Shown piece after piece: positions 6,582 to 37,934 of a stretch of 37,934 bases of DNA (the stretch's first letter is position 1; each line of letters starts with the position of its first letter). Made by a program: the position numbers and the translations under genes. The notes beneath the pieces were generated by a model, which searched no databases, was not told where the DNA came from, and saw only the letters and a list, made by a program, of their open reading frames with translations. Source of the DNA: a bacterium UBP10_UBA1149 (GTDB taxonomy: Bacteria; Desulfobacterota; Binatia; UBA1149); the NCBI GenBank assembly GCA_002311335.1, contig DBZX01000015.1, forward strand, positions 106,430-144,363, given 5' to 3'.

Positions 6582-6583
6582 GG

Positions 6584-10646: not shown

Positions 10647-10753
10647 GATGTTTGTCTGCCTCCTGAGCCTGACGAGTATTGAGTCTTAAAATTAACGTAA
10701 CGAGGGCGCTTCGTAGCCCAGTAGACGGGTTATTTGCTGCCCAAACCTTGCGA

Positions 10754-10781
10754 ACATTAATGGCGGGCAGCCGCGTGTCAA
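10754..10781 (-). promoter_or_regulatory. Candidate groESL promoter (sigma-70/sigma-32-like)
   Basis: Minus strand CCTTGACA-16 nt-TAATGT (with CCGCCAT just before the -10), about 105 nt upstream of the groES ATG. No CIRCE inverted repeat was found. Motif match only. Confidence 0.3.
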
Positions 10782-10792
10782 GGATATTCGGC

Positions 10793-10831
10793 AAAAAAAA
10801 CCGCCCGCCCGCCTCTGAAGGGCGCTTTTTT
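10793..10831 (-). terminator. Possible intrinsic terminator after the 10877-11158 gene
   Basis: Short GC hairpin (CGCCC/GGGCG) flanked by A8 on one side and T6 on the other, so on the minus strand the hairpin is followed by T8. The stem is weak. Confidence 0.35.
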
Positions 10832-10876
10832 ACCGGGGAAGGCTGGCCCCGGGGCCGGTCGCGCGGGCCCGGGTTT

Positions 10877-11158
10877 CTAGCGCCGCTTGGCCAGTTCTTC
10901 GCTGTATTGCCGGTAGAGCAGGTCCCACTCGCTGCTGCCCTCTGGCACCTGTCGGCTGAGCGACTCGATTCGCTGCCTCACGGCCCGGTCGAGCTCGGGG
11001 TCGTGGGCCCAGGCGGCCATGATGACCGAGGCCAGCACGCGCAGCGCCGCGCCTTCGTCCACCACGCTGACGCCAGCAGTATTTCTCAAGGTCCCGAGGG
11101 CGGTCGTCGCGATAGACTCGACCCTCTGGTCCGACATTCCCCGTCCACCGCCGCTCAC
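10877..11158 (-). CDS. Hypothetical small protein (93 aa, or 86 aa from ATG 11137)
   Basis: Protein-like composition, unlike the R/S/P-rich antisense 292-aa ORF. It overlaps the upstream small gene by 4 nt if the GTG at 11158 is used. No family recognised. Confidence 0.5.
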   Translation of the reverse strand: MSGGGRGMSDQRVESIATTALGTLRNTAGVSVVDEGAALRVLASVIMAAWAHDPELDRAVRQRIESLSRQVPEGSSEWDLLYRQYSEELAKRR

Positions 11159-11433
11159 AGGGCAAAGCCCCTGGCCTGGGCGATGCGTTCTTTCAGCCCC
11201 CGCAGCAGCGTGCTGCGGTCCATGCCGGAGGTCGAGCTGCCCAGCTTTTCAAACGTTCGTTCGGCTTCGAGCTGTATGGAGGCTTCGGCGGCAAAGTTGG
11301 CCGAGACCGCTGCCGAAACGGCCTCGGCTACCACGCCGTGGGGGCCTTTTATTGCTGGCGAGGCCTCGTCGAGCAACTTGCGGGCAGCCTGCATGGCGAC
11401 GTCCTCTATCGACTGCTTGCTGCGGTCTTTCAT
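11155..11433 (-). CDS. Hypothetical small helical protein (92 aa)
   Basis: Third-codon positions are about 75% G/C by my count, and the composition is K/E/A-rich and protein-like. It is the first gene of a two-gene unit. No family recognised. Confidence 0.5.
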   Translation of the reverse strand: MKDRSKQSIEDVAMQAARKLLDEASPAIKGPHGVVAEAVSAAVSANFAAEASIQLEAERTFEKLGSSTSGMDRSTLLRGLKERIAQARGFAL

Positions 11434-11561
11434 GCTGCGTGCCCCATCCCGGGGCTACAATACCGGGGGCTGGTGGCTACCGCCAGAGATAAACGATGGT
11501 TGGGCGATGGTGTCGGCGGCCCTGTTGAAAACTCTGCCAAGGGCAGTAGGCTGGTAAACAG

Positions 11562-12485
11562 ATGATGGTCAAACCAGCTCCCCTGGCAGCAGGCGACAGG
11601 GTCGCCCTGGTGGCCCCGTCCGGGGTATGCGACCCCGGCCGCCTGGCAACCGGCGTGCAACTGTTGCGCGATTGGGGACTGGACCCGGTCACGCTGGCCG
11701 TCGATGGGCGGTTTCGCTACATGGCCGACTCCGACCAGCGGCGCGCCGCTGCCCTTACCGAGGCTTTTTCCAACAACGACTACCGGGCCGTGATGGCGGT
11801 TCGCGGAGGTTTCGGCTGCGCTCGCCTGATCGACCGTTTTGACACGGCGCTGGTGGCTGCCAATCCCATAATACTCACCGGTTTCAGCGACCTTTCTTTG
11901 CTGCTCAACCGCGTGGTGCAGGAAGCCGGCGTGGCCTGCTACCATGCGCCCATGGTCGCGGCCGATCTCCCGCGCCTCGGCGAAGCTGCCAGGGAGTCGT
12001 TCCGGCGTTTCCTCTTCGGCGAAGACGGCTGGTTTGCAGGCCAGGCCGAGCAGTGCTGGCGCGGTGGTGTGGCGGAGGGCCTGCTGGTCGGGGGCTGCCT
12101 TTCGGTGCTGGTCACTACCCTGGGAACCCCCGCTGAAATCGACACCGAATCACGCATACTGTTTCTCGAAGACGTCGCTGAGAAGCCCTACCGCATCGAT
12201 CGCATGATGACCCACCTGCGACAGGCCGGAAAACTCGATCGCGTAGCGGGCCTGGTGCTTGGACCCATGACCGATTGCGATGACGGCCAGGGTCCCGGCG
12301 TTCTCAGGGACATAGTTCTCGAGGCGTTGGCTGGCATTGACTGCCCGGTGGCCTGGGGGCTGCAGTCGGGGCACGGCTGCGACAACGGTGTGCTACCTTT
12401 CGGATGCAGGGTGAGACTCGACGCTGACGCGCCAGGCCTCGAGCTGCTCGAGTCGGTGCTGTCCCCGGCCACGAGGTCGGGGTAG
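11562..12485 (+). CDS. ldcA: LD-carboxypeptidase (peptidase S66, muramoyltetrapeptide carboxypeptidase)
   Basis: 307 aa. GDRVALVAPSG, GGFGCARL and the nucleophile elbow GFSDLS are typical of S66. Confidence 0.8.
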   Translation: MMVKPAPLAAGDRVALVAPSGVCDPGRLATGVQLLRDWGLDPVTLAVDGRFRYMADSDQRRAAALTEAFSNNDYRAVMAVRGGFGCARLIDRFDTALVAANPIILTGFSDLSLLLNRVVQEAGVACYHAPMVAADLPRLGEAARESFRRFLFGEDGWFAGQAEQCWRGGVAEGLLVGGCLSVLVTTLGTPAEIDTESRILFLEDVAEKPYRIDRMMTHLRQAGKLDRVAGLVLGPMTDCDDGQGPGVLRDIVLEALAGIDCPVAWGLQSGHGCDNGVLPFGCRVRLDADAPGLELLESVLSPATRSG

Positions 12486-12508
12486 GCCGACTCCACGAGT
12501 TAAGCAAG

Positions 12509-13702
12509 GTGAGTAAGGGTGGGCAGGTATGGGCCGGGTTGGAGTCGCTGGTCGAAGAGGCCATGGGCCGGGGCGTGAGTCCGGGCGTGGTGCTGCTTGT
12601 AGGCCGGGGCGAAGACGTAATTTACCAGCGCGGCTGGGGTCGCCTGGGACTGGGCGAGAACCCCGACGTAGACAGCGCGGTTATACCCGCTACGCGTTTT
12701 GACGTGGCCTCACTGAGCAAGCCCCTGGCGACGTTTGCCTCGCTTGTGTTGCTAATGGCAGAGGGGCACTTGCTGCTGGGCCAGCCGGTGGCCGATTTTT
12801 TTCCAGGCTTTGGCGGCGTGGGACCCTTTGCCGGTGCGGGAGCAGGTGGAACTTCGGTCACCGTCAGCCAGCTGCTCACCCACAGTTCGGGCTTGCCCGA
12901 CTGGGTGCCGTATTTCAAGGCCCCGGAATTTGCCGCGGCCGGGCCGCAGCCGTTCACCTTCGACAAGCGTCGTCGCAGCCGCCTCGTGGCCGAGGTCGCC
13001 CGCCAGCCGTTGGTGTACGAACCCGGCAGCGAGTCGCGCTACAGCGATCTCGGTTTCATACTGCTGGGTGACATCGTAGAGCAGATCTCCGGCGAGGGTC
13101 TCGACGAGTTTATCACCTCGAGGCTGCTGCAACCGCTTGGCACGGGGGCTGGTTTCCGTCGTCCGGGCTCAGGCGTCCGGGGGCAGCCCGACGCCGAGTT
13201 AGCTCCCTGTGGAATCTGCGGGTGGCGGCAGCGGCTGGTGCAGGGGCAGGTGCAGGACGAGAACGCCTGGCTTATGGGCGGGGTGGCCGGGCACGCGGGA
13301 TTGTTTGCCTCGGCCCGGGACATCCACCTGTTGGCCGCTGAGCACGAGGCCGCGCTGGCTGGCAAGTCAACGCTGCTCGACGGCCGGCTGCTGCGCCACC
13401 TGCTCGACGCCGAGCCGTCGGTGCCTGGCTCGACCTGGCTGCCCGGCTGGGACACGCCCACGCCAGGCGCCTCGACGGCCGGCAGCCTGGTCGGCGCGCG
13501 CGCGCTCGGGCACCTGGGCTACACCGGTAGCTCGCTTTGGATAGACCGCGACCGGGGGGTGCACGTGGTGCTGCTCAGCAACCGCGTTCATCCCCACACT
13601 GGCAACCGCGGCATCGCTGCGCTCAGGCCGGCGGTGCACGACGCAGTGTTCGAGTGCGTTGATTCGCTGTCTCGACAGCGGTCACGCAAGCGTGCAGACT
13701 GA
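12509..13702 (+). CDS. Serine hydrolase of the beta-lactamase/penicillin-binding fold (class C-like)
   Basis: 397 aa. SxxK motif (ASLSKP), YSD (YxN-like) and HAG (KTG-like) in the expected order. GTG start. Confidence 0.8.
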   Translation: MSKGGQVWAGLESLVEEAMGRGVSPGVVLLVGRGEDVIYQRGWGRLGLGENPDVDSAVIPATRFDVASLSKPLATFASLVLLMAEGHLLLGQPVADFFPGFGGVGPFAGAGAGGTSVTVSQLLTHSSGLPDWVPYFKAPEFAAAGPQPFTFDKRRRSRLVAEVARQPLVYEPGSESRYSDLGFILLGDIVEQISGEGLDEFITSRLLQPLGTGAGFRRPGSGVRGQPDAELAPCGICGWRQRLVQGQVQDENAWLMGGVAGHAGLFASARDIHLLAAEHEAALAGKSTLLDGRLLRHLLDAEPSVPGSTWLPGWDTPTPGASTAGSLVGARALGHLGYTGSSLWIDRDRGVHVVLLSNRVHPHTGNRGIAALRPAVHDAVFECVDSLSRQRSRKRAD

Positions 13703-13709
13703 ACGGGTC

Positions 13710-15128
13710 GTGGCAGGCAAATCACAACACGTACATCTCGTGGCTGTATGCGGCGTCGGCATGGCGCCGCTGGCCGTCATGCTCAAGCAGTCGGGCTACA
13801 CAGTGAGCGGCTCCGACAAGGCTTCCTATCCGCCCATGGGGCAGGTGCTGGCCGACGCCGGCATAGAGATACTCGAAGGTTTTTCGCCCGACCATCTTGA
13901 CCCCCTGCCCGACGTGGTAGTTATCGGCAACGCGGTGTCGGCCAGCAACCCCGAGGCCGCGGAGGTCGAGCGCCTGGGGCTGCCGCGCCTGTCATTCCCC
14001 GAGGCGGTGGCCCGCTACTTCCTGCGCGATCGGCGTAGCCTGGTGGTGGCCGGTACGCACGGCAAGACAACCACCACCGGCATGCTGGCGCGCGTGCTCG
14101 AGGTCGCCGGCGAGGACCCCGGCTACCTGGTGGGCGGCCTGGTGCGCGACCTCAAAGGCTTGGCGCGGGCGGGCCGGGCGGGCGCCTGGTTTGCCATCGA
14201 GGGCGACGAGTACGACTCGGCCTACTTCGACAAGGGCCCCAAGTTTGTTCACTACCAGCCGGCGGCGAGCATAATCACCAGCGTTGAGTTCGACCACGCT
14301 GACATCTACCGCGACGTGGAGCACGTCAAGAGTTCCTTTGCGCGCCTGGTCGAGTTGCTGCCCGAAGGCGCCCCGCTGGTGGTTTGCGGCGACTATCCCC
14401 ACCTGCTCGACCTGCTTGGTTCGTCGCCGCGGCCGGGCTTGATCAGTTACGGTTGCGGCGACAACAACCAGTGGAGGCCCACAGAACTCGAGCACGGTTC
14501 GGCCGGCAGTTCGTTCCGACCGTCGCTTGAAGGTGAGCTGGGCCCGCGCTTGCAGCTGCGGCTTCACGGCAGCATCAACGTGCTCAACGCGCTGGCGGTG
14601 TTTGTGCTTTCGAGACAGCTCGGTATATCCGACGCCGCCGTGGCCGAAGCCCTGGCGGGGTACCGGGGTGCCGCCAGGAGGCAGGAGCTGGTGGGCAGTG
14701 CTGCGGGCGTGGACGTGATCGATGATTTTGCCCATCACCCCACCGCGGTTGCCGGCAGCCTGGCTGCCATGGCCGACGCGTACAACGGGCGCAGGGTGTG
14801 GGCGGTGTTCGAACCGCGCTCCAACACCAGCCGCAGGTCGGTCTTCCAGGCTCGCTATACCGAGGCCCTGGCCCTGGCCGACCGAGTCGTCCTGAGCGAG
14901 GTGTTCCACAAGGAGAACGATACCCTGGCCGAGGGCGAAGCGCTCGACACCGAGGCCGTGGTTGAGGAGCTGAACAGCACGGGCACCCCGGCCTGGCAGG
15001 CCGACGGTCCCGACGTCATACTCGACCGCCTGCCGGGCGAGCTCAAAGCGGGCGACGTGGTGCTGTGCATGTCCAACGGCGCTTTTGGAGATCTTCCGCG
15101 CCGCCTGCTGGCCGCTCTCGGCGGCTGA
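13710..15128 (+). CDS. mpl: UDP-N-acetylmuramate:L-alanyl-gamma-D-glutamyl-meso-diaminopimelate ligase (murein peptide ligase)
   Basis: HVHLVAVCGVGMAPLA..L...GY.VSGSD...YPPM aligns with the Mpl N-terminus, and GTHGKTTTT is the Mur-ligase P-loop. I prefer GTG 13710, just after the upstream stop. The track start TTG 13659 overlaps the previous gene by 44 nt. Confidence 0.85.
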   Translation: MAGKSQHVHLVAVCGVGMAPLAVMLKQSGYTVSGSDKASYPPMGQVLADAGIEILEGFSPDHLDPLPDVVVIGNAVSASNPEAAEVERLGLPRLSFPEAVARYFLRDRRSLVVAGTHGKTTTTGMLARVLEVAGEDPGYLVGGLVRDLKGLARAGRAGAWFAIEGDEYDSAYFDKGPKFVHYQPAASIITSVEFDHADIYRDVEHVKSSFARLVELLPEGAPLVVCGDYPHLLDLLGSSPRPGLISYGCGDNNQWRPTELEHGSAGSSFRPSLEGELGPRLQLRLHGSINVLNALAVFVLSRQLGISDAAVAEALAGYRGAARRQELVGSAAGVDVIDDFAHHPTAVAGSLAAMADAYNGRRVWAVFEPRSNTSRRSVFQARYTEALALADRVVLSEVFHKENDTLAEGEALDTEAVVEELNSTGTPAWQADGPDVILDRLPGELKAGDVVLCMSNGAFGDLPRRLLAALGG

Positions 15129-15134
15129 ACTGTT

Positions 15135-17288
15135 CTATTTTCCGGCAGCGCTGTCGCCGCTGGAGCCATACACGCGCTCGAAATTGCGAGCGTTGCGGAG
15201 AACCTTTTTCACGTAGCCACGGGTCTCGCGGTAGGAAATTCTTTCGATGAACTCATCCTCGTCGAGGCCGTCCAGCCGGTCGAACCAGCGTTGCGCCGCG
15301 TTCTCGCCCGCGTTGTAACCGGCCAGCATGAGGACGGGGTTGTCGTTGAAGCGCCGCGCGAGCGAGGCGAGGTAAGCCGTGCCCAGCGCGATGTTGACGT
15401 CGGGCACGAAGAGGTCGTCGCGCGAAGGCTCTGCCCGGTCCGTCGCCCTGGCCACCCGCCTGGCGGTGGGCAAGAGCAGTTGCATCAACCCGTAGGCAGC
15501 GGCCGGCGAGGTGGCGTGCGCGTCAAAAACGCTTTCCTGTTTCATCAGCGCGTAGACCAGCGAGGGGCGGATCTTCCAGCGACCCGCTTCGCGCCCCACG
15601 ATGTCGGCATGGGCCCTGGGGTAGAGAAACGGGTACAGCTGGGCATCGTTGAGCAGGCCCTTGCGATAGAGCTGCAGTGCCACGCGCAGGCTGCTGTTCC
15701 AGGCACCCGACGCGGCCAGCTGCGGCAACAGGGCCAGCAGTTGCTCGCTGCTGCGGCCGCTCGTCAGCCGAGCGGTTTCGGTGGCCCCGTGGTGGCCCAG
15801 GCCGGCGATTCTCAGTGCTTCCGCCCGCGCCAGTGTGCGCCGTGCAGAGGCGTCAAGCGTGACCGTTGAGCGTGGAAGATTTTCGACCGTGGCCGCGGGC
15901 GCCCTGAGCGGGAGCCGTTGCTCGACCAGCCAGGAATAAAAGCCGTCGGGAAACTCGGCCAGCAGCTGCCGGTAGACGGCCAGGGCCTCGTTGCTGGTCT
16001 TGCCAGCCGCGCGTTCAATGGAGCGGGCTTTCCAGTACAGGGCGCCTTCGCGTCCACTCGGGCTGGAGGGCCTGCTGACTCCTGACCCACGGGCCGGTGG
16101 CTTGGTGGCCTGCACGATGAGACCGAACTTCCACGCCGCGCCAGGGTAGTTGCCCGCCCGGTACGAGGCCCAGCCGGCCCGCCACGCGGACTCACTGCGG
16201 ATGTGCTGGTCAGGGCTTTTTTCGGCCGAGCGATAGTGGGCGGCCGCGCTGTTGTAGCGGCGGGCCGACTCATGGATGCGGCCCGAGGCGTAGTGGGCTT
16301 TGTGCTCTTCGTCCAGCCCCGACCCCAGCGACAGAAATTTTTCGAAGCGTTGCAGGGCCAGCGTCGACTGGTTCGCGTTCCAGCTGTACACCGCCGACTC
16401 GTACAGCAGTCGCGCCGACCGGCCCGGGTCGCTTTCGCCCGCAGATTTCTGCGACAGCCACCAGGCAGCCGCCTGCTTATCTTTCAGGGCCGCGGTCGAG
16501 CGGGCCCGGCCGAGAATCGAAGTCGTGCGCGATGGGTGGCGCGGAAAGTCCTTGAGCAGCTTGTCCAGCATCGCTACGCGTTGGCTGTGCCTGCCCTCGG
16601 CACCCAGCAGCCGGGTCTCGGCCACCAGCTGCTCGGCGCTGGTCGGCAACAGTTTCGGGTTGTCGCTTTGCAGATCGGATGCCAGCTCGGCGGCCGGCCT
16701 GCCCGATTGACCGCCGGGGTCTCTTGCCCTGGCGCGGTTGGCCAGCTCGAGCGAACGCCGGGGGTCCGAGGCCTGCAGGCGGCGCGCAGCCGCCACCGCG
16801 ATGGCCGCAAAATCGGCGTTGAGGGTGGTTCCGCCGCGGTACTTTTCGGCCAGCTCGAGTACGCGGGCATCTGCTGTTTCCGGCAGGCCAACCAGCAGCG
16901 CTGCGCTGGCGGGCGCCACCGGCGAGTCGGGTACCAGCGCCAGCAGCTTCTCGAGTTCGGCGGCAGCCGCAGTTTTTTCATCGGCGGCCGCTTCGGCGCT
17001 CAAGCCGGTAGCAGCGAGCCTGCTGCGGGCCAGGAAGTAGAGCACGTAGTCCTGCAGCAGGGCGAAGTCGTTTTTCAGGGTGAGCAGGGTGCGCCGGGCC
17101 AGGGCCGGGTCGTTGTCCCCGCTGGCTGACAGGGCCGTCACCGCAGATCCCAGCCGGGCGGCGTGGGTGGCGTCGGATCTGCCGAGCAGGGATTTTTCGG
17201 GTGCCGCCAGGGCGCTGCAGGCGGTAACGGCCGGGGCCAGCAGTGTGGCTGTAAGCAGGAAGGAAAGCGCTCTAACTCTGGTCAGCAC
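15135..17288 (-). CDS. slt: Soluble lytic murein transglycosylase (Slt70-like)
   Basis: 717 aa. Signal peptide, a long alpha-superhelical N-terminal region, and a C-terminal SLT domain with MKQESVF (catalytic Glu-Ser), AYGLMQL and AGYNAG. Confidence 0.85.
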   Translation of the reverse strand: MLTRVRALSFLLTATLLAPAVTACSALAAPEKSLLGRSDATHAARLGSAVTALSASGDNDPALARRTLLTLKNDFALLQDYVLYFLARSRLAATGLSAEAAADEKTAAAAELEKLLALVPDSPVAPASAALLVGLPETADARVLELAEKYRGGTTLNADFAAIAVAAARRLQASDPRRSLELANRARARDPGGQSGRPAAELASDLQSDNPKLLPTSAEQLVAETRLLGAEGRHSQRVAMLDKLLKDFPRHPSRTTSILGRARSTAALKDKQAAAWWLSQKSAGESDPGRSARLLYESAVYSWNANQSTLALQRFEKFLSLGSGLDEEHKAHYASGRIHESARRYNSAAAHYRSAEKSPDQHIRSESAWRAGWASYRAGNYPGAAWKFGLIVQATKPPARGSGVSRPSSPSGREGALYWKARSIERAAGKTSNEALAVYRQLLAEFPDGFYSWLVEQRLPLRAPAATVENLPRSTVTLDASARRTLARAEALRIAGLGHHGATETARLTSGRSSEQLLALLPQLAASGAWNSSLRVALQLYRKGLLNDAQLYPFLYPRAHADIVGREAGRWKIRPSLVYALMKQESVFDAHATSPAAAYGLMQLLLPTARRVARATDRAEPSRDDLFVPDVNIALGTAYLASLARRFNDNPVLMLAGYNAGENAAQRWFDRLDGLDEDEFIERISYRETRGYVKKVLRNARNFERVYGSSGDSAAGK

Positions 17289-28012: not shown

Positions 28013-29412
28013 TGCTCGCCCCCGAGCAGGGCCTTGCATCTAATGTAGGGTCCGCCTGCGTCAACCTTGGCCGGCTGCCCCTTGCCGCAGTATCCCGACC
28101 CGAGGTCCCAGCGAAAACTGTCCGACACGCTATCCACCGTTGAAAGCACGTCGAAGGCGATACCGGTCACTGTGACTCCCTTGACCAGCGCCCCGAGTTT
28201 GCCGTCCTTGATCTCGCGCGCTTCCTGCACGCCGAACATGAACTCGCCGGTGGCGTCGGCCTGGCCGTTGCGAGGGCCGTCGAGGAGGTAGCCGTGGCTC
28301 GTGCTCGCGATCATCTCTTCGAGGCTGGTCTGCCCGGGCTCGAGGTAGGTGTTGCGCATTCTTATGAGCGGTTCGTTGGCGTATTCCCAGGCCCTGGCGT
28401 TGCCCGTGGGCGCGACACCGTAGCGCGCCGCGCTCTCGCGGTTGTGGAGGTAGGACTCAAGTATGCCGTCGCGGATGATGACCGTGCGACCGGCGAGCAC
28501 GCCCTCGTCGTCCACGGGTATGGTGCCGCCGGCGCCGTCTTCGAGTTCCGAAGCGCCACTGTCGCACAGCGTGACCAGGTCGCTGGCCACGCGCTGGCCC
28601 AGCTTCCCGGCCGCCACCGATCCTGCTTGCACGAAGTCGGCTTCGACAGTGTGGCCGATGGCCTCGTGCACCAGCAGCCCCACTATCGAGGGCGCCAGGA
28701 TGACCGAGGCGCGGCCGCCCTGCGGGTGCCCGGCCGACAGCAGGTCAACCGCGGTGCGCGCCGCCTTGCTGGCAAAGTACTCGCCGTCGCCGTGGCGAAA
28801 CAGGCACTCCCAGCCACCGGTAGTGCCAATCGCTTCGAAGCCGGTCGACATCTCTCCGTTTCTTTCGGCCACCGCCTGCAGGCGCAGCTCGGGTCGCACC
28901 AGGCGAAAACTCGCAGCTGCCCCGTCGGTAGTGACGATGGCTTTTTCTTCAAAAATTTCCGAGTAGCCGCAGGTAGCAGACGAAACCGACGATGAAGAAC
29001 TACGCACGGTTTCTTCGAGCTTGCGGGCCATGCCGACTTTTTCTTCGAGCGAGCGTTGCTCTATCTCGTCGACTCCCGGTTGGCTGAAGTCACCGGTGGC
29101 GAGCTTGACCTCGGGAAGGTCGGCTACGGCCTCGCTTCGCAGCGAGGCGCCCGAGCGCGCGGCGGCCCGCGCCGACTCGATGGCTCGCTTGACGTCGGCG
29201 GGTTCTGAACTTCCGGTGGAGGCGAATCCCCAGGCGCCGTTCTCGAGCACGCGCACCCCCAGCCCGGCAACCGAGCGCGAGCTGCTGCTTTCGACCTTAC
29301 CCTTTTCTACGACCACACCGCGGGAGGTCTTGGCGTGGTATCTCAGCTCAACGAAGCCACCTGCCGAGGCGGCGGCCTGCTTGAGGGTCTCCATTACTTC
29401 AGCGGCGGACAT
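28009..29412 (-). CDS. tldD: Metalloprotease TldD
   Basis: 467 aa. HEAIGHTVEADF (HExxxH) and a C-terminal GYCGKGQ motif. Confidence 0.9.
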   Translation of the reverse strand: MSAAEVMETLKQAAASAGGFVELRYHAKTSRGVVVEKGKVESSSSRSVAGLGVRVLENGAWGFASTGSSEPADVKRAIESARAAARSGASLRSEAVADLPEVKLATGDFSQPGVDEIEQRSLEEKVGMARKLEETVRSSSSSVSSATCGYSEIFEEKAIVTTDGAAASFRLVRPELRLQAVAERNGEMSTGFEAIGTTGGWECLFRHGDGEYFASKAARTAVDLLSAGHPQGGRASVILAPSIVGLLVHEAIGHTVEADFVQAGSVAAGKLGQRVASDLVTLCDSGASELEDGAGGTIPVDDEGVLAGRTVIIRDGILESYLHNRESAARYGVAPTGNARAWEYANEPLIRMRNTYLEPGQTSLEEMIASTSHGYLLDGPRNGQADATGEFMFGVQEAREIKDGKLGALVKGVTVTGIAFDVLSTVDSVSDSFRWDLGSGYCGKGQPAKVDAGGPYIRCKALLGGEQ

Positions 29413-29427
29413 TGGCTTATTCTAAGC

Positions 29428-29775
29428 ATGTTTTCGGGTTGTTCAACATCCGGCGACGCGGGGGCTTGTGTGCCCGCTCGCGCTGCGGTAATTAGCCGGG
29501 TGGATTCCGCACCTGCATCGGGTGTACCGGCCAAGCCGGGGCGCAAGATCAAGGTAAATCCCTTGCGTTGTAGGTCGGAATCCTGCGATGGCCTCCTGGC
29601 CTTCGAGGAAACGGATGAAGGATTTCTTATGGGGAACATGATCCTTCTGGCGGATGAGGTTGAGGGGAAGAGGTTTTTTCCGTGCCCGAAGTGCAGGGGT
29701 CGCAACCTGGTCGACGAAGTCGAACACGGTGGCAGGACCCGCGTCCGCGTTTTTGGTTTTGAGCCCGGCGAGTAG
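29428..29775 (+). CDS. Hypothetical small zinc-ribbon protein (start uncertain)
   Basis: CRSESC...(32 aa)...CPKCRG gives two CxxC-type knuckles. Third-position G/C is about 70% in this frame by my count. ATG 29428 is the first start outside tldD. No family recognised. Confidence 0.4.
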   Translation: MFSGCSTSGDAGACVPARAAVISRVDSAPASGVPAKPGRKIKVNPLRCRSESCDGLLAFEETDEGFLMGNMILLADEVEGKRFFPCPKCRGRNLVDEVEHGGRTRVRVFGFEPGE

Positions 29776-29843
29776 CGAGAGAGCGGCCTCTGCCGCTTGC
29801 TGTTCTTCGGGCGACAGTCACTGACAGCCACTGGTTCTTTTTC

Positions 29844-30593
29844 GTGCACCGGGTAGTGCCTTGCGCGCTTTTGCGCGCTCGGTTGGTGTACCGAGTGATA
29901 AGTTTGAACAAGTACAAGGTGTTGCGTGCGCAGAGCGCGGCGCTGCCGGTGGCCGCGCTGGCCTGCGCGCTGCTCGTCATTCCCTCGTTTTCGGGTGCCG
30001 CTTCGCTTCCGGAGGGACCACGCCAGGGCGTCGCAGCGGAGGCGAGCCGACGGCCGAGCAGCCAGCAGCTCAACAGGCTGGACCGGCTCGAGCCCCTGAT
30101 TCGCTACTTCACCTCCTTGTCTTACGGTCCCGACGACGCGCGCGTGAACGGCGACTACATTCGCGCCTTGATACTCACCGAGTCGGGCGCCAACATACGC
30201 GCCCGCTCGCGCAAGGGTGCAAGGGGCCTGACGCAGATCATGCCGTCCACGGCGAGGTGGGCCGTGGCTCACCTCGCCCGCGAAAACTACGACTACCTGT
30301 ACGTAGACGAGGGCGTGTTCAAGGATTTCGTGGCCGACGATCTTTACCATCCGGGCTTGAACGTATTGTTGGCCTGCTACCTCAACGCCACTTACAACCA
30401 GCGTTTTGATGGACAGATTGAGTTGATGGCCGCGGCCTGGAATGCCGGGCCCGGGGCGGTGCGGCGCTATGGAAACCAGCCGCCCCCTTACCCCGAAACA
30501 CTTACCCTGATCAGGCGAGTGCTGGGATACATAGATTTCTTCACGGCTACCGTCGGCGTTAATCCCGCATCACCCGGGCTGGCTCTCAAGTAG
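29844..30593 (+). CDS. Lytic transglycosylase (SLT domain) with signal peptide
   Basis: ALILTESGAN (catalytic Glu-Ser), ARGLTQIMPSTA, AAWNAGPG. There is a hydrophobic leader ALPVAALACALLVIPSFSGAAS. The start is uncertain (GTG 29844, TTG 29904 or GTG 29919). Confidence 0.8.
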   Translation: MHRVVPCALLRARLVYRVISLNKYKVLRAQSAALPVAALACALLVIPSFSGAASLPEGPRQGVAAEASRRPSSQQLNRLDRLEPLIRYFTSLSYGPDDARVNGDYIRALILTESGANIRARSRKGARGLTQIMPSTARWAVAHLARENYDYLYVDEGVFKDFVADDLYHPGLNVLLACYLNATYNQRFDGQIELMAAAWNAGPGAVRRYGNQPPPYPETLTLIRRVLGYIDFFTATVGVNPASPGLALK

Positions 30594-32195: not shown

Positions 32196-33158
32196 TCAGC
32201 GATGTCGGCGCGTTGTAGGGTCGAGGCTGGCCGGTTCGACGTGGACTACCACGTCGGTCACCGCGGGGTAGCTCTGTTTTATCCTGTCCTCGATTTCCTC
32301 GGTGACGTGGTGCGATCGGAGTACACTCATGTCGTCGGGCAGGTAGAGCTGCAGGTCAACGTAGATGTCGCTGCCGTTGCTGCGCGAGCGAACCGCGTGC
32401 ATGCGGCCCATGGCCCGGTTGTTCTCGAACAGGGCGGCTATGTCCTCGCTGGGTATGGGAGCCGCGTCGGACAGTACGGCCAGCGCGTCGCGCATGATGA
32501 CGTAAGCCGTGCGCGCTATCAGGGCACCGATGCCAACTGCTACCAGGACGTCGAGGCCCGGGTAGCCCAGGCGTACGGCGGCCAGCGATCCTATTACCGC
32601 CAGCGATGCGTATACGTCCGAGCGCGTGTGGGCCGCGTCGGCCTTGAGCACCCGGCTGTTGAGCCGCTCACCGGCAGAGTGTTCCCAGCGGGTTACGGCG
32701 ATGTTGACGAGCAGGGTCGCGATCATGACGGCAAACGCCAGCGGGCTCGCTGTGGGGACAGATCCGCTGCGCGACCTGTCCAGCGCCGCGCCCAGCACTT
32801 CCCAGGCCGCCAGCACCAGGAAACCGGCGATGACCAGTGCCGCCACTACCTCGTATCGGCGATGCCCGTAGTGGTGGTCCGCGTCGGGCGGCCGCGCAGC
32901 CGCGGTCACGCCCAGTATGCCGACCACGGTGGCCAGGCTGTCGAACAGCGAGTGGTAGCCGTCGGCCAGGATGGCGATGCTGGCCGTCATCGTCCCGGTC
33001 ACCAGCTTGGCAATCGCGACCGACAGGTTGAGCACCAGCACGGCCGAGAGCACCCCGGTGGCACCGGTACGCCTCCCGGAAAGCGCCCCGGGCTTGTCGC
33101 TGTTGCGGCTTTCGGAGGCCATGAAGGGCATCATGTCAGCGAGAGGGGCAGATTCCAA
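32196..33158 (-). CDS. Cation diffusion facilitator (CDF) family divalent-metal efflux transporter
   Basis: Six predicted TMs. ADGYHSLFDSLA (TM2 HxxxD) and AHTRSDVYAS (TM5 HxxxD), plus a C-terminal cytoplasmic domain. Confidence 0.88.
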   Translation of the reverse strand: MESAPLADMMPFMASESRNSDKPGALSGRRTGATGVLSAVLVLNLSVAIAKLVTGTMTASIAILADGYHSLFDSLATVVGILGVTAAARPPDADHHYGHRRYEVVAALVIAGFLVLAAWEVLGAALDRSRSGSVPTASPLAFAVMIATLLVNIAVTRWEHSAGERLNSRVLKADAAHTRSDVYASLAVIGSLAAVRLGYPGLDVLVAVGIGALIARTAYVIMRDALAVLSDAAPIPSEDIAALFENNRAMGRMHAVRSRSNGSDIYVDLQLYLPDDMSVLRSHHVTEEIEDRIKQSYPAVTDVVVHVEPASLDPTTRRHR

Positions 33159-33261
33159 CGTAGCCTGCGGCCGGTCGCCCCTTATCGTGCATGGCTTGTT
33201 ACCTTGACGAAAAGTTGGTACTCAATGTCGATAAGCCGTTCCCCGGGGCGGTTACGCGTAT

Positions 33262-33507
33262 ATGGGTAAAGACGGTATAGAGGTAGACGGGACGGTCAAA
33301 GAGAACCTCCCGAACGCATTTTTCAAGGTGGAGCTGGAGAACGGCCACACCGTGCTCGCCCATATTTCGGGTAAGATGCGTAAGTACTATATCCGTATCC
33401 TTCCAGGCGATGCAGTCAAGGTGGAGCTGTCGCCCTATGATCTGACCAGGGGTCGGATAATCTGGCGAGAGAAAACGCCCCCCCGCACGCCTCGCAAGCG
33501 GCGCTAG
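33262..33507 (+). CDS. infA: Translation initiation factor IF-1 (with a short basic C-terminal extension)
   Basis: [65 protein letters not shown] is canonical IF-1. Confidence 0.96.
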
Positions 33508-33523: not shown

Positions 33524-33599
33524 TGGGGAGTGGCCAAATTGGTAAGGCACCTGATTCTGGTTCAGGCAACTGAAGGTTCGAGTCCTTCCTCCCCAGCCA
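33524..33599 (+). tRNA. tRNA-Gln (anticodon CUG), CCA encoded
   Basis: Hand-folded cloverleaf: acceptor TGGGGAG/CTCCCCA, anticodon stem CCTGA/TCAGG with loop TTCTGGT, T arm GAAGG-TTCGAGT-CCTTC, discriminator G plus CCA. The overall sequence is very close to E. coli tRNA-Gln as I remember it. Confidence 0.93.
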
Positions 33600-33756: not shown

Positions 33757-33773
33757 TGGCACGTCCATTGCTC
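33757..33773 (+). promoter_or_regulatory. Sigma-54 (RpoN) promoter, copy 1
   Basis: TGGCACGTCCATTGCTC matches TGGCAC-N5-TTGC exactly. It lies 55 nt upstream of ATG 33826, and an identical 17-mer precedes the next gene. Confidence 0.75.
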
Positions 33774-33825: not shown

Positions 33826-34728
33826 ATGGGCGACCAGTTTTCAGACGGGGATTCACAACTTTCAACAGGTTACGAGCCCGCGGTGCAATCGCCGGTGGCG
33901 ATACTGCGCTGGTCCGGGTTCGTCCTGGGGCTGGTGGCGGTTGTGGCGGCTGTGGCCGCGGTCATGCCATCCAACGGCGAGCTGCAGCTCCGGGCAGGAG
34001 AGTCGGCGCAGACCGTAGGCATGCTTGAAAGCCTGGGCGGTACGGTCGCCGTAGTGCCGGTCAACGCGCTTTGCGGTAACGCCCAGTTGGATGAGGGCGA
34101 GGCCTGCGACGACGGTAACCTTTCCAACTCGGACAAGTGCCTGGCTAATTGCAAGCTGCAGAGCTGCGGAGACGGATTTATCCACGTTGGCTTTGAGCAG
34201 TGTGACGACGGAAATTCTGACGACGCCGACAGTTGCCTGGGCAGCTGTCGCAGTGCTCGCTGTGGCGACGGCTTTGTCCAGGCCGATGTTGAGAGCTGCG
34301 ACGACGGCAACGCTGACAACACAGACGCCTGTCTGGATAGCTGCGAGACTGCTTCCTGCGGCGATGGTTTTGTGCAGGCCGATGTAGAGAGCTGCGACGA
34401 CGGCAACGCTGACAACACAGACGCCTGCCTCTCGAGCTGCGAGGCCGCGCCGGCCGAGTTGCCCGAGCTGTATACGCAGGCCGAGGACCTGGACCTTGCC
34501 GATTTCAGTCTGCAACTGGGTGCGTTCACTTCGCTGGCCAATGCCGAGGAGTTCATGGAAGCAGCTGCCCAGGTAGTACCTGGCGTGCGTGTGAGCCGGA
34601 CCGAAAGGAACGGCAAGTCCTTGTACCGGGTCGTCCTGGGACGCTACCCGACCGCCGGGCAGGCGGAGGTCATACAGCACACGCTGGCCATGGCAGGCAT
34701 GGGCTCGCTTTTGAAGGTTCGGCGCTAG
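33826..34728 (+). CDS. Bitopic membrane protein: TM helix, four Myxococcus-type cysteine-rich repeats, C-terminal SPOR peptidoglycan-binding domain
   Basis: ATG 33826 is preceded by GGGGGAAG. TM WSGFVLGLVAVVAAVAAVM. Repeats CG[ND]G..6-8..C-DDGN....D.C...C at 34072-34452. The C-terminus FSLQLGAFTSLANAEEF....G.SLYRVVLGRYPTAGQAE..... fits the SPOR consensus (34501-34722). Confidence 0.85.
   Translation: MGDQFSDGDSQLSTGYEPAVQSPVAILRWSGFVLGLVAVVAAVAAVMPSNGELQLRAGESAQTVGMLESLGGTVAVVPVNALCGNAQLDEGEACDDGNLSNSDKCLANCKLQSCGDGFIHVGFEQCDDGNSDDADSCLGSCRSARCGDGFVQADVESCDDGNADNTDACLDSCETASCGDGFVQADVESCDDGNADNTDACLSSCEAAPAELPELYTQAEDLDLADFSLQLGAFTSLANAEEFMEAAAQVVPGVRVSRTERNGKSLYRVVLGRYPTAGQAEVIQHTLAMAGMGSLLKVRR
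34261..34452 (+). repeat. 96-nt in-frame tandem duplication (two cysteine-rich repeat units)
   Basis: 34261-34356 versus 34357-34452 shows 15 differences in 96 nt by hand count. The first 24 codons encode identical peptides (CGDGFVQADVESCDDGNADNTDAC), with 6 differences that are all synonymous. Confidence 0.9.
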
Positions 34729-34772: not shown

Positions 34773-34893
34773 AGTCGTTGAACCGCTGTCGATAGCTCTT
34801 CAGCCTGCCACCAGCCTGTAAAACCGCCCCGATAACAAGTCTTTACGGCACATAGCCCAGCTTCCGGCGCTCCCTCTTTTCCAGCTCATACGG

Positions 34894-34910
34894 TGGCACG
34901 TCCATTGCTC
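34894..34910 (+). promoter_or_regulatory. Sigma-54 (RpoN) promoter, copy 2
   Basis: The identical 17-mer TGGCACGTCCATTGCTC, 57 nt upstream of ATG 34965. Confidence 0.75.
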
Positions 34911-34964
34911 TTGCAACTATGGGTATTTGGCCCTGACATGGGCCAATCCAGGGAGACCAGGGGA

Positions 34965-37934
34965 ATGGATGACAGAATTTTTGATATGAACTCAAAGCCT
35001 TTTTGCAACGATCGGCCAGACGAGAGCTGCTTCGATAGCGCTAACACTCGTGAGGCGGTGGCTTCGTTGCTGCACGGAATACGGTCGCGCAAGGGCTTTA
35101 TCACTCTCGTGGGTGACCAGGGAACCGGCAAGACGTCGCTGCTGCAGCGCGTCGCCGACGAGCTCGAGGGCGAGGCCGAGGTCGTATGCGTGTTCGACGC
35201 GGGGCTCGGCTTCGACGAACTGCTCGAGTACCTCTGCGTCCAGCTGGGCCTGGACACCGACGACAGCCGCCGCATGAGCCTGCTCGACAAGCTGAACGCC
35301 TACCTGCTCGATTCGCTCGTAGAGGGCGGCAACGTCGTAGTCATAATCGACGATGCTCACCTGATCGATGAGAGGCTGCTCGAAGAACTTCGCCTGCTCA
35401 CCAACCTCGAAACTTCCACAGAGAAAATACTGCAGATCGTCCTGTGCGGAGAGCGCTCTCTCGAAACCAAGCTCAAGCGCCACTCGCTTCGGCAGGTAAG
35501 GCAGCGCGTAGGCATGCGAGCAGTTCTCGAACCTCTGGCCAAGGACGACGTCGTTGATTACATCGACTCTCGCCTGGCCCCCTGGGAAGCGAGAGCCGAA
35601 GACATTTTCAGTGGTGGTGCTATTCGCCGTCTTTCCGGCGGCCGCAAGCCCACTCCCGCCAGCGTGAACAGCCTGGCCGCGAGAGCCATGGAGATCGCCC
35701 TGGAGAAAGGGCTGCCCCTGGTGCCAGCTTCTTGCATTCGAAAAGCCGAGGCCGAACAGCGACGCACTCTCAGGGGCGAGGGCTCAGGATCTACCGCTGC
35801 CGCTCTGCGGTGGACGGGATACGGTGGCGCGGCTTTCGCAGCTGCTGCGGTGGCCGTGCTGCTGACCAACAACTGGCAGGGCAGTGTTACGAACGTAGTG
35901 GCCCCTGGAGCTGAGCCCGTGCCGAGCTACTCGAACTCGGTGCAGCTGGCACTCGACGAACTTCAAAGCCAGAGCGAACTGGCCGACAGCGCGCTTGCCG
36001 AGGTTTCCAAGGCGAAAACCACCAGTGAAACGGCCGCTGCCAAGACCGTGGTCAGCGAGGAGGGGTTGGCTGATAGCTTGCAAGCCACGGTGCTTGTTGC
36101 AGCCGTGGCGCCTGTGCAAGCCGACGTCGTGGCGGCCGCCTCGTTGGTAGAAAACCATACTGCGGATAGCGCTTCGGTAGAAAGCGATCCGACAGGCGAT
36201 CACTCGGTGGACAACATCCTGGCGGATGATGCCTCGGTGGTAGTCGTTCTGGCCGGCGACCTGTGTGGGAACGGCGAATTGGACGAGGGCGAAGAATGTG
36301 ACGACGGCAACCCGTCGAACTCCGATGCCTGCCTGGTGACCTGTGAGCTCCGCAGTTGCGGCGACGGTTTCGTGCACTCTGGTTTCGAAGAGTGCGACGA
36401 CGCGAACTCGAACAACAGCGACGAATGTCTCAACAACTGTCGCAAGGCTCGTTGTGGAGACGGGCAGGTCCTGGCTTCCCTTGAGGAGTGCGATGATGGC
36501 AAGGCTAACAGCAACTCGACGGCGGACTCCTGCAGGGTAGACTGCCGTTTACCCTTTTGCGGTGACGGAGTGGTGGATGGCGACGAAGCCTGCGATGACG
36601 GCAACGCCAACAATAACGACACCTGTCTCGACAGTTGCGTGACCGCGGTTTGCGGCGATGGTTTTATACAGGTCGACGTAGAGCAGTGTGACGCGGGTGC
36701 AGACAACGACGACGGCACGGCCGACGTTTGTCGTACCGATTGCAGTCTGCCTTCCTGCGGCGACGGCGTGGCCGATTCCGGCGAGATCTGCGACGACGGA
36801 AACAGCTCTAACCAGGACGGTTGCATTGAAGATTGCACTCTCCCGGTTTGCGGCGACGGCTACTTGTTCGTGGGCATGGAAGAATGCGACGAGGGCGACC
36901 GGAACAGTACCAGGCTTCCCAATGTCTGCAGGACGGATTGCACGAGGCCTTCCTGCGGCGATGGCGTGGTCGACACCGGCGAATCCTGTGACGACGGAAA
37001 CAGTGACAACAGCGACGCCTGCCTTGACGACTGCCGCGTGGCTTCATGCGGAGACAGCGTGGTGCAGGCGGGCGTAGAAGAATGCGACTCCGGGGGCTTC
37101 AACAGCGACTTGCTCCCCGGCAGTTGTCGGAGCGATTGCGTTCTGCCCACCTGTGGTGACGGCGTGGTCGATTCGGGCGAGGCTTGCGACGACGGCAACG
37201 CCGACGACAGTGACTCCTGCCTGGCCAACTGCGTCTCGGCCACTTGCGGTGATGGGGTTGTATCCGTTGGCGTGGAGTCCTGTGACGGCGGAGACGCCAA
37301 CAGTGATATTGTTGCCGGTGCTTGCCGTAACGACTGTTCGTTGCCCTCCTGTGGTGACGGAGTTGTCGACGCGGGCGAGAGCTGCGACGACGGCAATATT
37401 TCGAACGATGACAGCTGCACGGCAAAATGTGAGCATGCGTTCTGCGGCGACGGCTTCGTACAGGTTGGTGTAGAGACCTGCGACGCGGGCATCGGGAACG
37501 GCAACCGGATCGGCGATCTTTGTCGTACGGACTGCCGCGTAGCTTCCTGCGGTGATGGAACTGTCGATGCCGGCGAGAGCTGCGACGACGGCAATATTTC
37601 AAACGATGATAGCTGCACAGCGAAATGTGAGCATGCGTTCTGCGGCGACGGCTTTGTGCAGGTGGGAGTCGAGGCTTGCGACGCGGGCCCGGCCAATAGT
37701 GATGTAACGGCTGATAGCTGCCGCGGCGATTGCACGGTGGCCAGCTGCGGTGACGGGATGGTTGACGCGGGCGAGGCCTGCGACGATGGCAACGCCGACA
37801 ACAGCGATGCCTGCCTGGCCAGCTGCGAGGCGGCGGCCTGCGGTGACGGTTTCGTTCAGCTTGACGTAGAGGCTTGCGACGCGGGCCTGGCCAACAGCGA
37901 TGTTGCGGCAGATAGCTGCCGCGGCGATTGCACG
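34965..37934 (+). CDS. Partial CDS (3' end outside the window): ExeA/GspA-like AAA+ ATPase, TM segment, linker, then at least 17 Myxococcus-type cysteine-rich repeats
   Basis: Hand translation of + frame 3 gives 990 codons without a stop from ATG 34965 to the last base, with the upstream in-frame stop TAA at 34833. GGGAGA lies 8 nt before the ATG; an in-frame ATG at 34938 is the alternative start. Walker A GDQGTGKT (35112-35135), Walker B VVVIIDDAH, and LRLLTNLETSTEKILQIVLCGERSLE are typical of ExeA/MshM ATPases. Hydrophobic segment at 35820-35867. Repeats from 36264. It is not in the ORF track because it has no stop. Confidence 0.88.
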   Translation, partial: MDDRIFDMNSKPFCNDRPDESCFDSANTREAVASLLHGIRSRKGFITLVGDQGTGKTSLLQRVADELEGEAEVVCVFDAGLGFDELLEYLCVQLGLDTDDSRRMSLLDKLNAYLLDSLVEGGNVVVIIDDAHLIDERLLEELRLLTNLETSTEKILQIVLCGERSLETKLKRHSLRQVRQRVGMRAVLEPLAKDDVVDYIDSRLAPWEARAEDIFSGGAIRRLSGGRKPTPASVNSLAARAMEIALEKGLPLVPASCIRKAEAEQRRTLRGEGSGSTAAALRWTGYGGAAFAAAAVAVLLTNNWQGSVTNVVAPGAEPVPSYSNSVQLALDELQSQSELADSALAEVSKAKTTSETAAAKTVVSEEGLADSLQATVLVAAVAPVQADVVAAASLVENHTADSASVESDPTGDHSVDNILADDASVVVVLAGDLCGNGELDEGEECDDGNPSNSDACLVTCELRSCGDGFVHSGFEECDDANSNNSDECLNNCRKARCGDGQVLASLEECDDGKANSNSTADSCRVDCRLPFCGDGVVDGDEACDDGNANNNDTCLDSCVTAVCGDGFIQVDVEQCDAGADNDDGTADVCRTDCSLPSCGDGVADSGEICDDGNSSNQDGCIEDCTLPVCGDGYLFVGMEECDEGDRNSTRLPNVCRTDCTRPSCGDGVVDTGESCDDGNSDNSDACLDDCRVASCGDSVVQAGVEECDSGGFNSDLLPGSCRSDCVLPTCGDGVVDSGEACDDGNADDSDSCLANCVSATCGDGVVSVGVESCDGGDANSDIVAGACRNDCSLPSCGDGVVDAGESCDDGNISNDDSCTAKCEHAFCGDGFVQVGVETCDAGIGNGNRIGDLCRTDCRVASCGDGTVDAGESCDDGNISNDDSCTAKCEHAFCGDGFVQVGVEACDAGPANSDVTADSCRGDCTVASCGDGMVDAGEACDDGNADNSDACLASCEAAACGDGFVQLDVEACDAGLANSDVAADSCRGDCT
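36558..37934 (+). repeat. In-frame 198-nt super-repeat (31-aa A unit + 35-aa B unit), 7 copies, the last cut by the window edge
   Basis: The Cys codon of each CGDG opening an A unit falls at 36558, 36756, 36954, 37152, 37350, 37548 and 37746, exactly 198 nt apart. The copies at 37350 and 37548 are the most similar. Confidence 0.9.

Follow-up and report, generated by a model that had tools for sequence, protein, structure and literature searches.

A rare fusion of an ExeA/GspA-like AAA+ ATPase with a long array of cysteine-rich DUF4215 repeats, encoded beside a SPOR-domain protein with the same repeat, in a marine Candidatus Binatota bacterium

The uncultured marine bacterium UBP10_UBA1149 belongs to Candidatus Binatota (UBP10), a group once binned as Deltaproteobacteria, to which the names of clusters containing conserved window proteins also point. 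Its relatives are known from deep-sea and hydrothermal-plume metagenomes. We analysed a stretch of 37,934 nucleotides (nt) of its contig DBZX01000015.1, here called the window, which ends within a giant gene. This gene encodes an ExeA/GspA-like AAA+ ATPase that is followed by one predicted transmembrane (TM) segment, a linker and an array of cysteine-rich repeats of the DUF4215/TIGR02232 type. The ATPase-repeat fusion is a rare, previously undescribed variant of a known ATPase family. A second gene, located upstream and referred to as the partner gene, encodes a protein with the same repeat and a C-terminal SPOR domain, and both genes are preceded by a σ54-type promoter motif. On balance, we favour the view that the giant protein stems from a lineage of ATPases of exopolysaccharide (EPS) loci and that, together with its SPOR partner, it rebuilds an ATPase-membrane-peptidoglycan anchor in trans as an envelope scaffold.

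An original prediction, made from the sequence alone, had described the giant gene as a frame of 990 stop-free codons that begins at ATG 34965, is preceded by an in-frame TAA (34833-34835) and is open at the 3' edge of the window. Retranslation of plus frame 3 agrees with this, the frame being stop-free from the TAA through base 37934. Two ATGs are present in it, at 34938 and 34965, and the 990 sense codons are counted from the latter. This ATG is the likely start, because M1, P12 and F13 of the encoded protein align with the N-terminus of the family, the sequence AGGGAGA is located about 10 nt upstream, and the gene calls in five syntenic contigs begin at the equivalent codon. The prediction was also right in that the gene is missing from the listing of open reading frames (ORFs): since the frame runs off the end of the window, the listing omits it and shows shadow ORFs alone in this region. 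Both Walker motifs, the hydrophobic segment and the beginning of the repeats were re-found where they had been placed, and the proposed order of ATPase, one predicted TM segment, a linker of about 130 amino acids (aa) and TIGR02232/DUF4215 repeats was right.

The N-terminal ATPase module matches Pfam AAA_22 with 77 bits (cutoff 27), and the repeats match Pfam DUF4215 (PF13948) with 167 bits (cutoff 27) and NCBIfam TIGR02232 with 183 bits (cutoff 20.8). Among the curated families, the ATPase scored best against NCBIfam TIGR03015, with 150 bits, which is under the cutoff of 324.5. In an AlphaFold2 model of the ATPase, built with an alignment of 92 sequences, residues 20-270 form an AAA+ domain with a lid (pLDDT above 90), and residues 289-301 form a helix. 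Foldseek returned ORC/Cdc6 and MuB as the closest solved folds (E-values down to 6e-11). There is no solved structure of an ExeA ATPase, and a sequence search of the PDB returned generic P-loop matches only for the ATPase and nothing for the repeats. A defence-system identity was considered and rejected, as PADLOC gave insignificant P-loop matches only. The hydrophobic helix (residues 286-301) is flanked by six Lys/Arg residues on its N-terminal side and none on its C-terminal side, and homologues also have a hydrophobic segment at the equivalent position. From the positive-inside rule, the need of an NTPase for cytoplasmic nucleotide and the four-cysteine units of the array, we infer an N-in/C-out topology, with the ATPase on the cytoplasmic side of the membrane and the repeats on the periplasmic side.

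The claim of at least 17 repeats was correct for the window, which contains exactly 17, but it understated the array, as the full gene has about 80. Each of the 17 units carries four cysteines, and units of 31 aa (CGDG…CDDGN type) alternate with units of 35 aa (CGDGF…CD.G type), in agreement with the period of 198 nt detected by Tandem Repeats Finder. The array is composed of 17% Asp, 13% Gly and 12% Cys, and has a net charge of -104 per 557 residues. Six units were modelled by AlphaFold2 with a 64-row alignment at a pLDDT of 94.7, with hardly any helices or strands, and a fold search with this model gave no significant solved match (best E = 0.74). Single units superpose on a stretch of 32-35 residues of human PAPP-A with a root-mean-square deviation (RMSD) of 0.9-1.4 Å and 46-48% identity, which is not significant at such a length. 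No solved structure contains a tandem DUF4215/TIGR02232 array, and the literature assigns no function to this repeat. Elsewhere, DUF4215 repeats occur in secreted proteins of Myxococcota and eukaryotes, with cadherin-like, RCC1, lectin and carbonic-anhydrase modules, and also in a diatom adhesive-trail protein. Within the window, the repeat is confined to the giant gene and the partner gene.

Syntenic contigs were retrieved by exact look-up of the product of the neighbouring infA gene, which yielded six contigs from five distinct assemblies. The 990 codons are collinear with these five other independent assemblies, without indels and at 90-96% identity, and neither the in-frame stop nor the frameshift that the original prediction had named as its possible undoing was found. 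In comparisons of the window with the five assemblies, dN/dS was 0.10-0.22 for the ATPase segment, 0.16-0.19 for the repeats and 0.28-0.47 for the linker, which is the fastest-evolving part. Although 23-65 substitutions fall in the repeat region, none of its 68 cysteines varies (random expectation at cysteines, 2.8-7.9), and the first 17 units are strictly collinear, with no copy-number variation between strains. Purifying selection and the invariance of the cysteines argue that the gene is functional and not an artefact. A chimeric assembly or a pseudogene in decay, as alternative accounts of the fusion, could draw on the finding that four of the five distinct syntenic assemblies terminate within the array, as does the window, and that the only contig reading through it has an NN gap, collapsed repeats and frame breaks. 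However, the ATPase-TM-linker-repeat junction is identical in six independent assemblies and recurs in five further lineages at 42-48% identity, three times on complete genes, and dN/dS is well below 1 in each segment. We consider the chance of a chimera or pseudogene to be close to nil, and for the part within the window this alternative is effectively refuted.

The contig that carries the array beyond the edge of the window is LWDU01040316.1 (JGI GBIDBA_10000029, 308 kb), referred to as L001. NCBI and JGI gene calls split the giant ORF of this contig in two, the first gene having 1,526 or 1,460 aa and the second 1,498 aa. What looks like a stop comes after an NN scaffold gap and a collapsed repeat, and repeats are still encoded between the two called genes. 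Judged from this sequence, the giant gene is taken to be a single ORF of about 9.3 kb that would encode some 3,100 aa with around 80 units, a unit count that is only approximate because the read-through assembly is imperfect. The 3' end was reached by exact DNA search: the array is followed by a non-hydrophobic tail of about 45 aa, in which, for the read-through orthologue, there is no recognised domain and no PEP-CTERM motif. Neither the 990 aa encoded in the window nor the last 550 aa of the full-length orthologue matched PG_binding_1 (PF01471). The assembly defects of L001 (16782-17260 and 10531-11622) comprise the NN gap, the collapsed repeat and frame breaks, and they leave the partner gene called with a frameshifted tail that lacks SPOR; the near-identical repeats of the giant and partner genes probably caused cross-assembly in this contig. 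Existing annotations of the fusion proteins read only 'AAA family ATPase' or 'DUF4215 domain-containing protein'. As the giant gene is systematically broken by assemblers or split by gene callers, and escapes protein sets that seem to stop at about 1,000 aa, giant repeat fusions are probably under-counted.

Downstream of the giant gene and on the same strand are a NUDIX-like gene, a histidine kinase gene (65 bits versus the PrsK cutoff of 300) and a chlorite-dismutase-like gene. The NUDIX-like gene, whose resemblance to NUDIX is confined to a weak match at the N-terminus, is conserved and encodes about 290 aa; it is located 24-37 nt after the ATPase-repeat gene (contig L007, 6855-7724, minus strand; contig L041, 2261-3136) and followed by the histidine kinase gene. 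It may be co-transcribed with the ATPase-repeat gene.

The original prediction had been silent on the partner gene and on the shared σ54-type promoters (Table 1). The partner protein consists of a short, predicted cytoplasmic N-terminus, a TM segment, four repeats and SPOR, with scores of 61.6 bits for DUF4215 and 41.5 bits for SPOR (PF05036; cutoff 21). The number of partner units varies between close strains with near-identical flanks: 3, 4, 7 or 8 units were counted in proteins of 268-428 aa (L003-L006, 10565 onward), the counts being adjusted by eye for units starting with CGNA. The σ54 consensus TGGCAC-N5-TTGCW has two exact matches in the window, where 0.04 would be expected, and no σ70-like promoter was found. 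The two promoter regions have 37 nt in common at about 84% identity, which points to a promoter duplication. The σ54-type motif is kept in contigs L001-L006 and L041/L042, and across orthologues at 48% identity. No Sigma54_activat protein was detected among the window ORFs scanned.

Table 1. Features of the window that relate to the giant gene and its partner
Feature	Position	Strand	Basis
Giant ATPase-repeat gene, 5' part (990 of ~3,100 codons), open at window edge	34965..37934	+	Frame translation, domain searches, syntenic contigs
Cytoplasmic AAA+ module, aa 20-270	35022..35774	+	AAA_22 and TIGR03015 matches, AlphaFold2, Foldseek
Walker A, GDQGTGKT	35112-35135	+	Translation
Walker B, VVVIIDDAH (DD variant instead of DE)	35334-35360	+	Translation
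Predicted single TM segment, Ala/Val/Leu-rich, N-in/C-out	35820..35867	+	AlphaFold2 helix, charge bias, homologues
Linker, A/S/V/E-rich, ~130 aa, low complexity	35868..36263	+	No Pfam match
17 four-Cys acidic units, 31/35 aa alternating, 198-nt double unit; array runs on to ~80	36264..37934	+	Tandem Repeats Finder, motif scan
Second copy of σ54-type motif TGGCACGTCCATTGCT, 55 nt before ATG 34965	34894..34909	+	Exact-pattern search
Partner gene, 300 aa	33826..34728	+	Pfam, TIGR02232, motif scan; ribosome-binding site and ATG read from sequence
Partner TM segment, residues 29-47	33910-33966	+	Sequence
Partner repeats, 4 DUF4215/TIGR02232 units	~34072-34449	+	TIGR02232 (4 stretches), motif scan
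Partner C-terminal SPOR domain	~34501-34707	+	Pfam
σ54-type -24/-12 motif TGGCACGTCCATTGCT, 53 nt before partner start	33757..33772	+	Exact-pattern search
tRNA-Gln(CTG), synteny anchor	33524..33599	+	ARAGORN

Word-indexed and exhaustive searches revealed thousands of relatives that are named ExeA or GspA. An exhaustive HMMER search with the ATPase gave 21,443 matches, of which the best 149 representatives of clusters at 50% identity were examined; about 21 of these form a top tier at 235-268 bits, after which the scores drop. A regular-expression census detected the Cys-rich repeat in five of the 149 (P0002, P0205, P0311, P0320 and P0330), and the repeat-bearing lineages are Binatia and 'Myxococcales' metagenome-assembled genomes. 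The repeat motif was absent in any frame from the contigs of at least 32 listed ExeA-like loci of other phyla. The fusion is therefore rare among the closest relatives, but it is not unique, as at least six lineages share it and form a small clade. The original prediction stated that no ExeA-type ATPase described so far is known to have such an ectodomain. Likewise, no published description of the ATPase-repeat fusion was found in the literature searched, where a query on ExeA-like, GspA-like, MshM and COG3267 returned noise.

In a neighbour-joining tree on 265 ATPase columns, the six repeat-bearing proteins formed one clade in 476 of 500 bootstrap replicates, and still in 464 of 500 when the Walker B columns were left out; they were grouped with LysM-type proteins in 495 of 500. 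The clade is also marked by its Walker B sequence, which reads IDDA[HQ] in all six repeat-bearing proteins (P0205 by eye) and has DE in every one of the 136 other representatives whose Walker B can be recognised. All six also carry E130D and S146T/G and have lost P17. Among the 70 closest representatives, Pfam detected LysM in 20 and SPOR in 10, and more distant relatives carry PG_binding_1 and SH3_3. The design of the family thus joins an ATPase, via a TM segment and a linker, to a wall-binding module, and the DUF4215 array is a replacement of this module with a single origin. The unassigned C-terminal tails of the LysM-type sisters were considered as cryptic SPOR domains homologous to that of the partner, which was rejected at an hhalign probability of 2%, no better than that of shuffled controls. 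Some relatives (P0328, P0329 and P0331) have two ExeA-like ATPase modules in tandem within one polypeptide.

The surroundings of two sisters bear on the origin of this clade. The gene for P0310, of the LysM type, is located directly after a gene for an NtrC-type σ54 response regulator and before Poly_export and Wzz genes; the regulator scores 378 bits for the PEP-CTERM-box regulator family TIGR02915, below the cutoff of 502.6. P0332, of the SPOR type, adjoins genes for a NusG paralogue, a sulfatase and a glycosyltransferase with Poly_export. There are no secretins beside either of them. TIGR03015 is the best NCBIfam match across the clade, with 277 and 268 bits for the sisters, 198 for P0311 and 150 for the window's protein, all below the cutoff. 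The sister loci and this best match suggest that the clade has its ancestry in EPS/PEP-CTERM-type loci and not in type II secretion. The predicted ExeA/GspA identity therefore holds in so far as the protein is an ExeA/GspA-like AAA_22 ATPase; it does not extend to an ExeA of a type II secretion system (T2SS), the nearest curated family being TIGR03015, below threshold.

Characterised ExeA is driven to multimerise with ExeB when its periplasmic domain binds peptidoglycan, and formation of the complex requires the ATPase (PMC4098917). Could the giant protein then be a genuine T2SS ExeA/GspA that multimerises on peptidoglycan with a GspB partner to bring a secretin through the wall, its ectodomain being merely unusual? 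Its homologues are named 'general secretion pathway protein A' or 'ExeA' in the sources, and the layout of AAA_22, one TM segment and an ectodomain is that of ExeA (PMC4098917). Like ExeA and GspA of Aeromonas and Vibrio, it combines a cytoplasmic AAA ATPase and a single TM segment with a large periplasmic part, here as predicted. ExeA works with a second single-TM protein encoded alongside, and the giant gene also has a neighbour for a single-TM protein; the ExeA system binds peptidoglycan, and at the present locus the adjacent gene encodes the peptidoglycan-binding domain, the SPOR of the partner. However, ExeA has about 60 kDa and one PF01471, whereas the giant protein has about 3,100 aa, approximately 80 Cys-rich repeats and no peptidoglycan-binding domain of its own. 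Moreover, in place of the GspB/ExeB partner and the T2SS secretin there is a neighbour with DUF4215 and SPOR only, which gave no GspB-like match, and there are no secretin or T2SS genes within 35 kb upstream or 9 kb downstream. With TIGR03015 as the best curated family and polysaccharide export at the sister loci, we regard membership in a T2SS as highly improbable.

The members of the TIGR03015 group, an XrtA/PEP-CTERM-associated ATPase family, and its LysM/SPOR relatives resemble the giant protein more broadly, as all of them have an N-terminal AAA+ module, a TM segment and a low-complexity linker. Regulation by σ54 is indicated in both cases: an NtrC-type regulator is encoded beside P0310, and in PEP-CTERM/EPS regulons σ54-driven single-gene units are the rule (PMC1569441). 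The repeat-bearing clade nests inside this group on the ATPase tree. Unlike the group, the giant protein scores 150 versus 324.5 bits, has a DUF4215 array in place of LysM/SPOR and DD in place of DE in its Walker B, lacks the GIPR arginine and the GQPE motif, and has no EPS, XrtA or PEP-CTERM genes near its locus. No PEP-CTERM tail is present in either the giant protein or the partner. To our knowledge, the function of TIGR03015 is without experimental characterisation.

Three other members of the clade inform on how the locus may have changed. P0311 has 630 aa and about five units, and its cluster includes an 'AAA family ATPase, partial [Candidatus Binatia bacterium]'. Its locus has a tRNA-Gln directly upstream (L041), and NUDIX-like, histidine kinase, chlorite-dismutase-like and CarboxypepD_reg genes downstream, as at the locus of the giant gene, and these shared flanks make it a positional orthologue. 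An exact σ54 motif precedes its gene by 55 nt, and a partner gene is absent. Compared with P0311, the array has grown about 16-fold in the lineage of the window, from approximately 5 to approximately 80 units, and the SPOR partner is a lineage-specific addition. σ54 motifs with one mismatch, in which GG and GC are intact, precede P0205 and P0320. In P0205 (L040, 6831-9701, complete, 956 aa), the family N-terminus MYEHFFGL is located at codon 72, and the σ54-type motif TGGTACGCGTGTTGCT at 6907 lies within the annotated N-terminal extension; its annotated start is probably 71 codons too far upstream.

The ATPase of the giant protein is the most derived of the clade. Of the 63 positions at which 90% or more of the other 144 relatives agree, it retains 44 (the median of these relatives is 62). 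The GIPR arginine (R232A) and the GQPE motif are missing from it; Walker A, D129, R143, N147 and Q157 are intact. In AAA+ proteins the Walker B glutamate activates water for hydrolysis, and a DD pair is typical of slow, switch-like STAND NTPases. By analogy, the ATPase would bind nucleotide and turn it over slowly. As Walker A is intact but Walker B has DD and the GIPR arginine is lost, it may act mainly as a nucleotide-dependent oligomerisation switch and not as a fast motor.

The predicted topology of the partner is that of the SPOR proteins FtsN and DamX: the N-terminus is short and cytoplasmic, and the TM segment is followed by a periplasmic spacer that leads to SPOR at the C-terminus. The partner also gives weak FtsN and RlpA matches over the SPOR domain. 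Unlike FtsN, its spacer is made up of DUF4215 repeats, it scores 24 bits versus a cutoff of 108, and it has no division-gene context. In the ATPase family, SPOR or LysM is usually fused to the ATPase; here SPOR is found on a neighbour that shares the repeat, so that, by Rosetta-stone reasoning, the two proteins probably act together.

Altogether, the history and function that we favour are as follows. The subfamily sits inside a clade of EPS-locus ATPases with LysM or SPOR ectodomains; in it, the ectodomain was swapped for DUF4215 repeats, and the Walker B glutamate was exchanged for aspartate. In the lineage of the window, the array expanded, and the second gene, with its TM segment, four repeats and SPOR, was inserted upstream with a copy of the σ54-type promoter. 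Expression of both genes would depend on σ54 and an enhancer-binding protein. The periplasmic repeats may form a rigid, disulfide-locked and probably cation-binding stalk that pairs with the matching repeats of the SPOR partner, the repeat arrays being the likely interface. The two proteins together would restore in trans the design of ExeA and of the LysM/SPOR sisters, namely a cytoplasmic ATPase connected through the membrane to a peptidoglycan anchor. The pair would thereby serve as an envelope scaffold, with polysaccharide export as its ancestral context.

Several observations weigh against this scaffold. There are no EPS, T2SS or pilus genes near the locus (window, about 35 kb upstream; 9 kb downstream), and Wzz, Poly_export, exosortase and PrsK/PrsR are all absent from the window and the 9 kb downstream. 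No partner gene is present beside the ATPase gene in the P0311 (L041/L042) or P0205 (L040) loci, where flanking DNA is available, so that the family can do without the partner. The topology is a prediction, and the TM segment, which is rich in Ala and of no more than moderate hydrophobicity, has low AlphaFold2 confidence. An array of 80 units is probably far longer than the width of the periplasm; this unit number is itself approximate, because an NN gap and collapsed repeats mar the single assembly that reads through the array. Lastly, giant relatives may have been missed in the homologue listing, which contains no protein above 975 aa, though orthologues of 1,086-1,572 aa were called on contigs of the same collection.

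Another reading is that the ectodomain is itself the working part, as a long adhesive or matrix-binding fibre for attachment to biofilms, particles or hosts, for which the ATPase and TM segment would be anchor and regulator. Known proteins with the same DUF4215/TIGR02232 repeat are secreted or surface proteins with extracellular modules, in which long tandem arrays are common in Myxococcota and some eukaryotes and include the diatom adhesive-trail protein; fusion to an AAA+ module via a TM segment was found only in the six lineages. However, the giant protein has no signal peptide and no known signal for outer-membrane translocation or sorting, its C-terminal tail is non-hydrophobic and without a PEP-CTERM motif, and the N-terminal inner-membrane anchor would hold it beneath the outer membrane of a diderm. 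The 16-fold expansion of the array in a marine lineage and the range of 3 to 8 partner repeats between strains would suit an adhesin, whereas the first 17 units of the giant gene are constant in copy number, and selection on them is purifying rather than diversifying. We grant such a fibre some chance, albeit a limited one.

Alternatively, the array might be a periplasmic buffer or sensor for cations or metals, such as Ca2+ or hydrothermal-plume metals, that signals its occupancy to the cytoplasmic NTPase. This would agree with the 17% Asp, the 12% Cys, the net charge of -104 over 557 residues and the NCBIfam name of the unit, 'cysteine-rich acidic repeat', but the invariant cysteines, four per unit, point to structural disulfides and not to free thiol ligands, and no metal-binding family was matched. 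ADAM disintegrin-like domains bind Ca2+, and the repeat has a weak local structural likeness to PAPP-A and disintegrin/ADAM modules; none of these matches reaches significance (best E = 0.74). Hydrothermal plumes and the deep sea are the sources of the metagenomes that contain the relatives, and a CDF cation-efflux gene is located 0.7 kb upstream, though on the opposite strand and with infA and a tRNA in between. A buffering or sensing role therefore seems improbable to us.

A bolder version of the scaffold can be considered, in which the two σ54-controlled genes build a new envelope structure. About 80 disulfide-locked acidic modules would make up a nucleotide-gated fibre, perhaps over 100 nm in length, that is anchored in the inner membrane and fastened to the wall via the matching repeats of the SPOR partner. 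Its origin would lie in an assembly ATPase of polysaccharide export, through replacement of the ectodomain and a runaway expansion of the repeats. We regard this as speculative, with a small chance of being correct. If it were true, the fibre could serve as a periplasm-wide or circumferential scaffold or ruler, unlike known secretion accessories.

ExeA-type proteins are the only known case of a cytoplasmic AAA+ module coupled across the membrane to a peptidoglycan-binding domain for the assembly of an envelope machine, and the numerous relatives of ExeA in polysaccharide loci are uncharacterised. The present clade suggests that the ectodomain of this design is exchangeable, with DUF4215 now added to LysM, SPOR, PG_binding_1 and SH3, and that a separate partner with the same repeats can take over the wall anchor. 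The DUF4215/TIGR02232 repeat would thereby gain a defined topological context and a candidate binding partner.

The rest of the window is occupied by unrelated housekeeping genes. These include genes for a Dpp/Opp-type ABC transporter, GroEL, a peptidoglycan-recycling cluster, proC, and hydantoinase A and B, as well as genes for a sulfatase, a TldD/PmbA pair, an enoyl-CoA hydratase, the CDF transporter, infA and the tRNA-Gln. Four long ORFs have no Pfam match (6078-7552, 10679-11557, 29394-30350 on the minus strand, and 32202-33269), and some of them are probably shadow ORFs in a sequence of 64% GC: 32202-33269 is opposite the CDF transporter gene, and 29394-30350 is opposite an SLT-domain ORF. 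The infA gene (33262-33507) encodes an initiation factor IF-1 of 81 aa with a basic C-terminal extension, and some members of its cluster are called at 93 aa; typical bacterial IF-1 has about 72 aa and is not known to carry such a basic extension. A cell-wall turnover cluster at 11562-17288 encodes an LD-carboxypeptidase, a class C beta-lactamase-like protein, an Mpl-like Mur ligase and a TPR-SLT lytic transglycosylase of 717 aa. A second SLT-domain ORF is located at 29844-30593, and these cell-wall turnover genes fit a diderm with peptidoglycan recycling.

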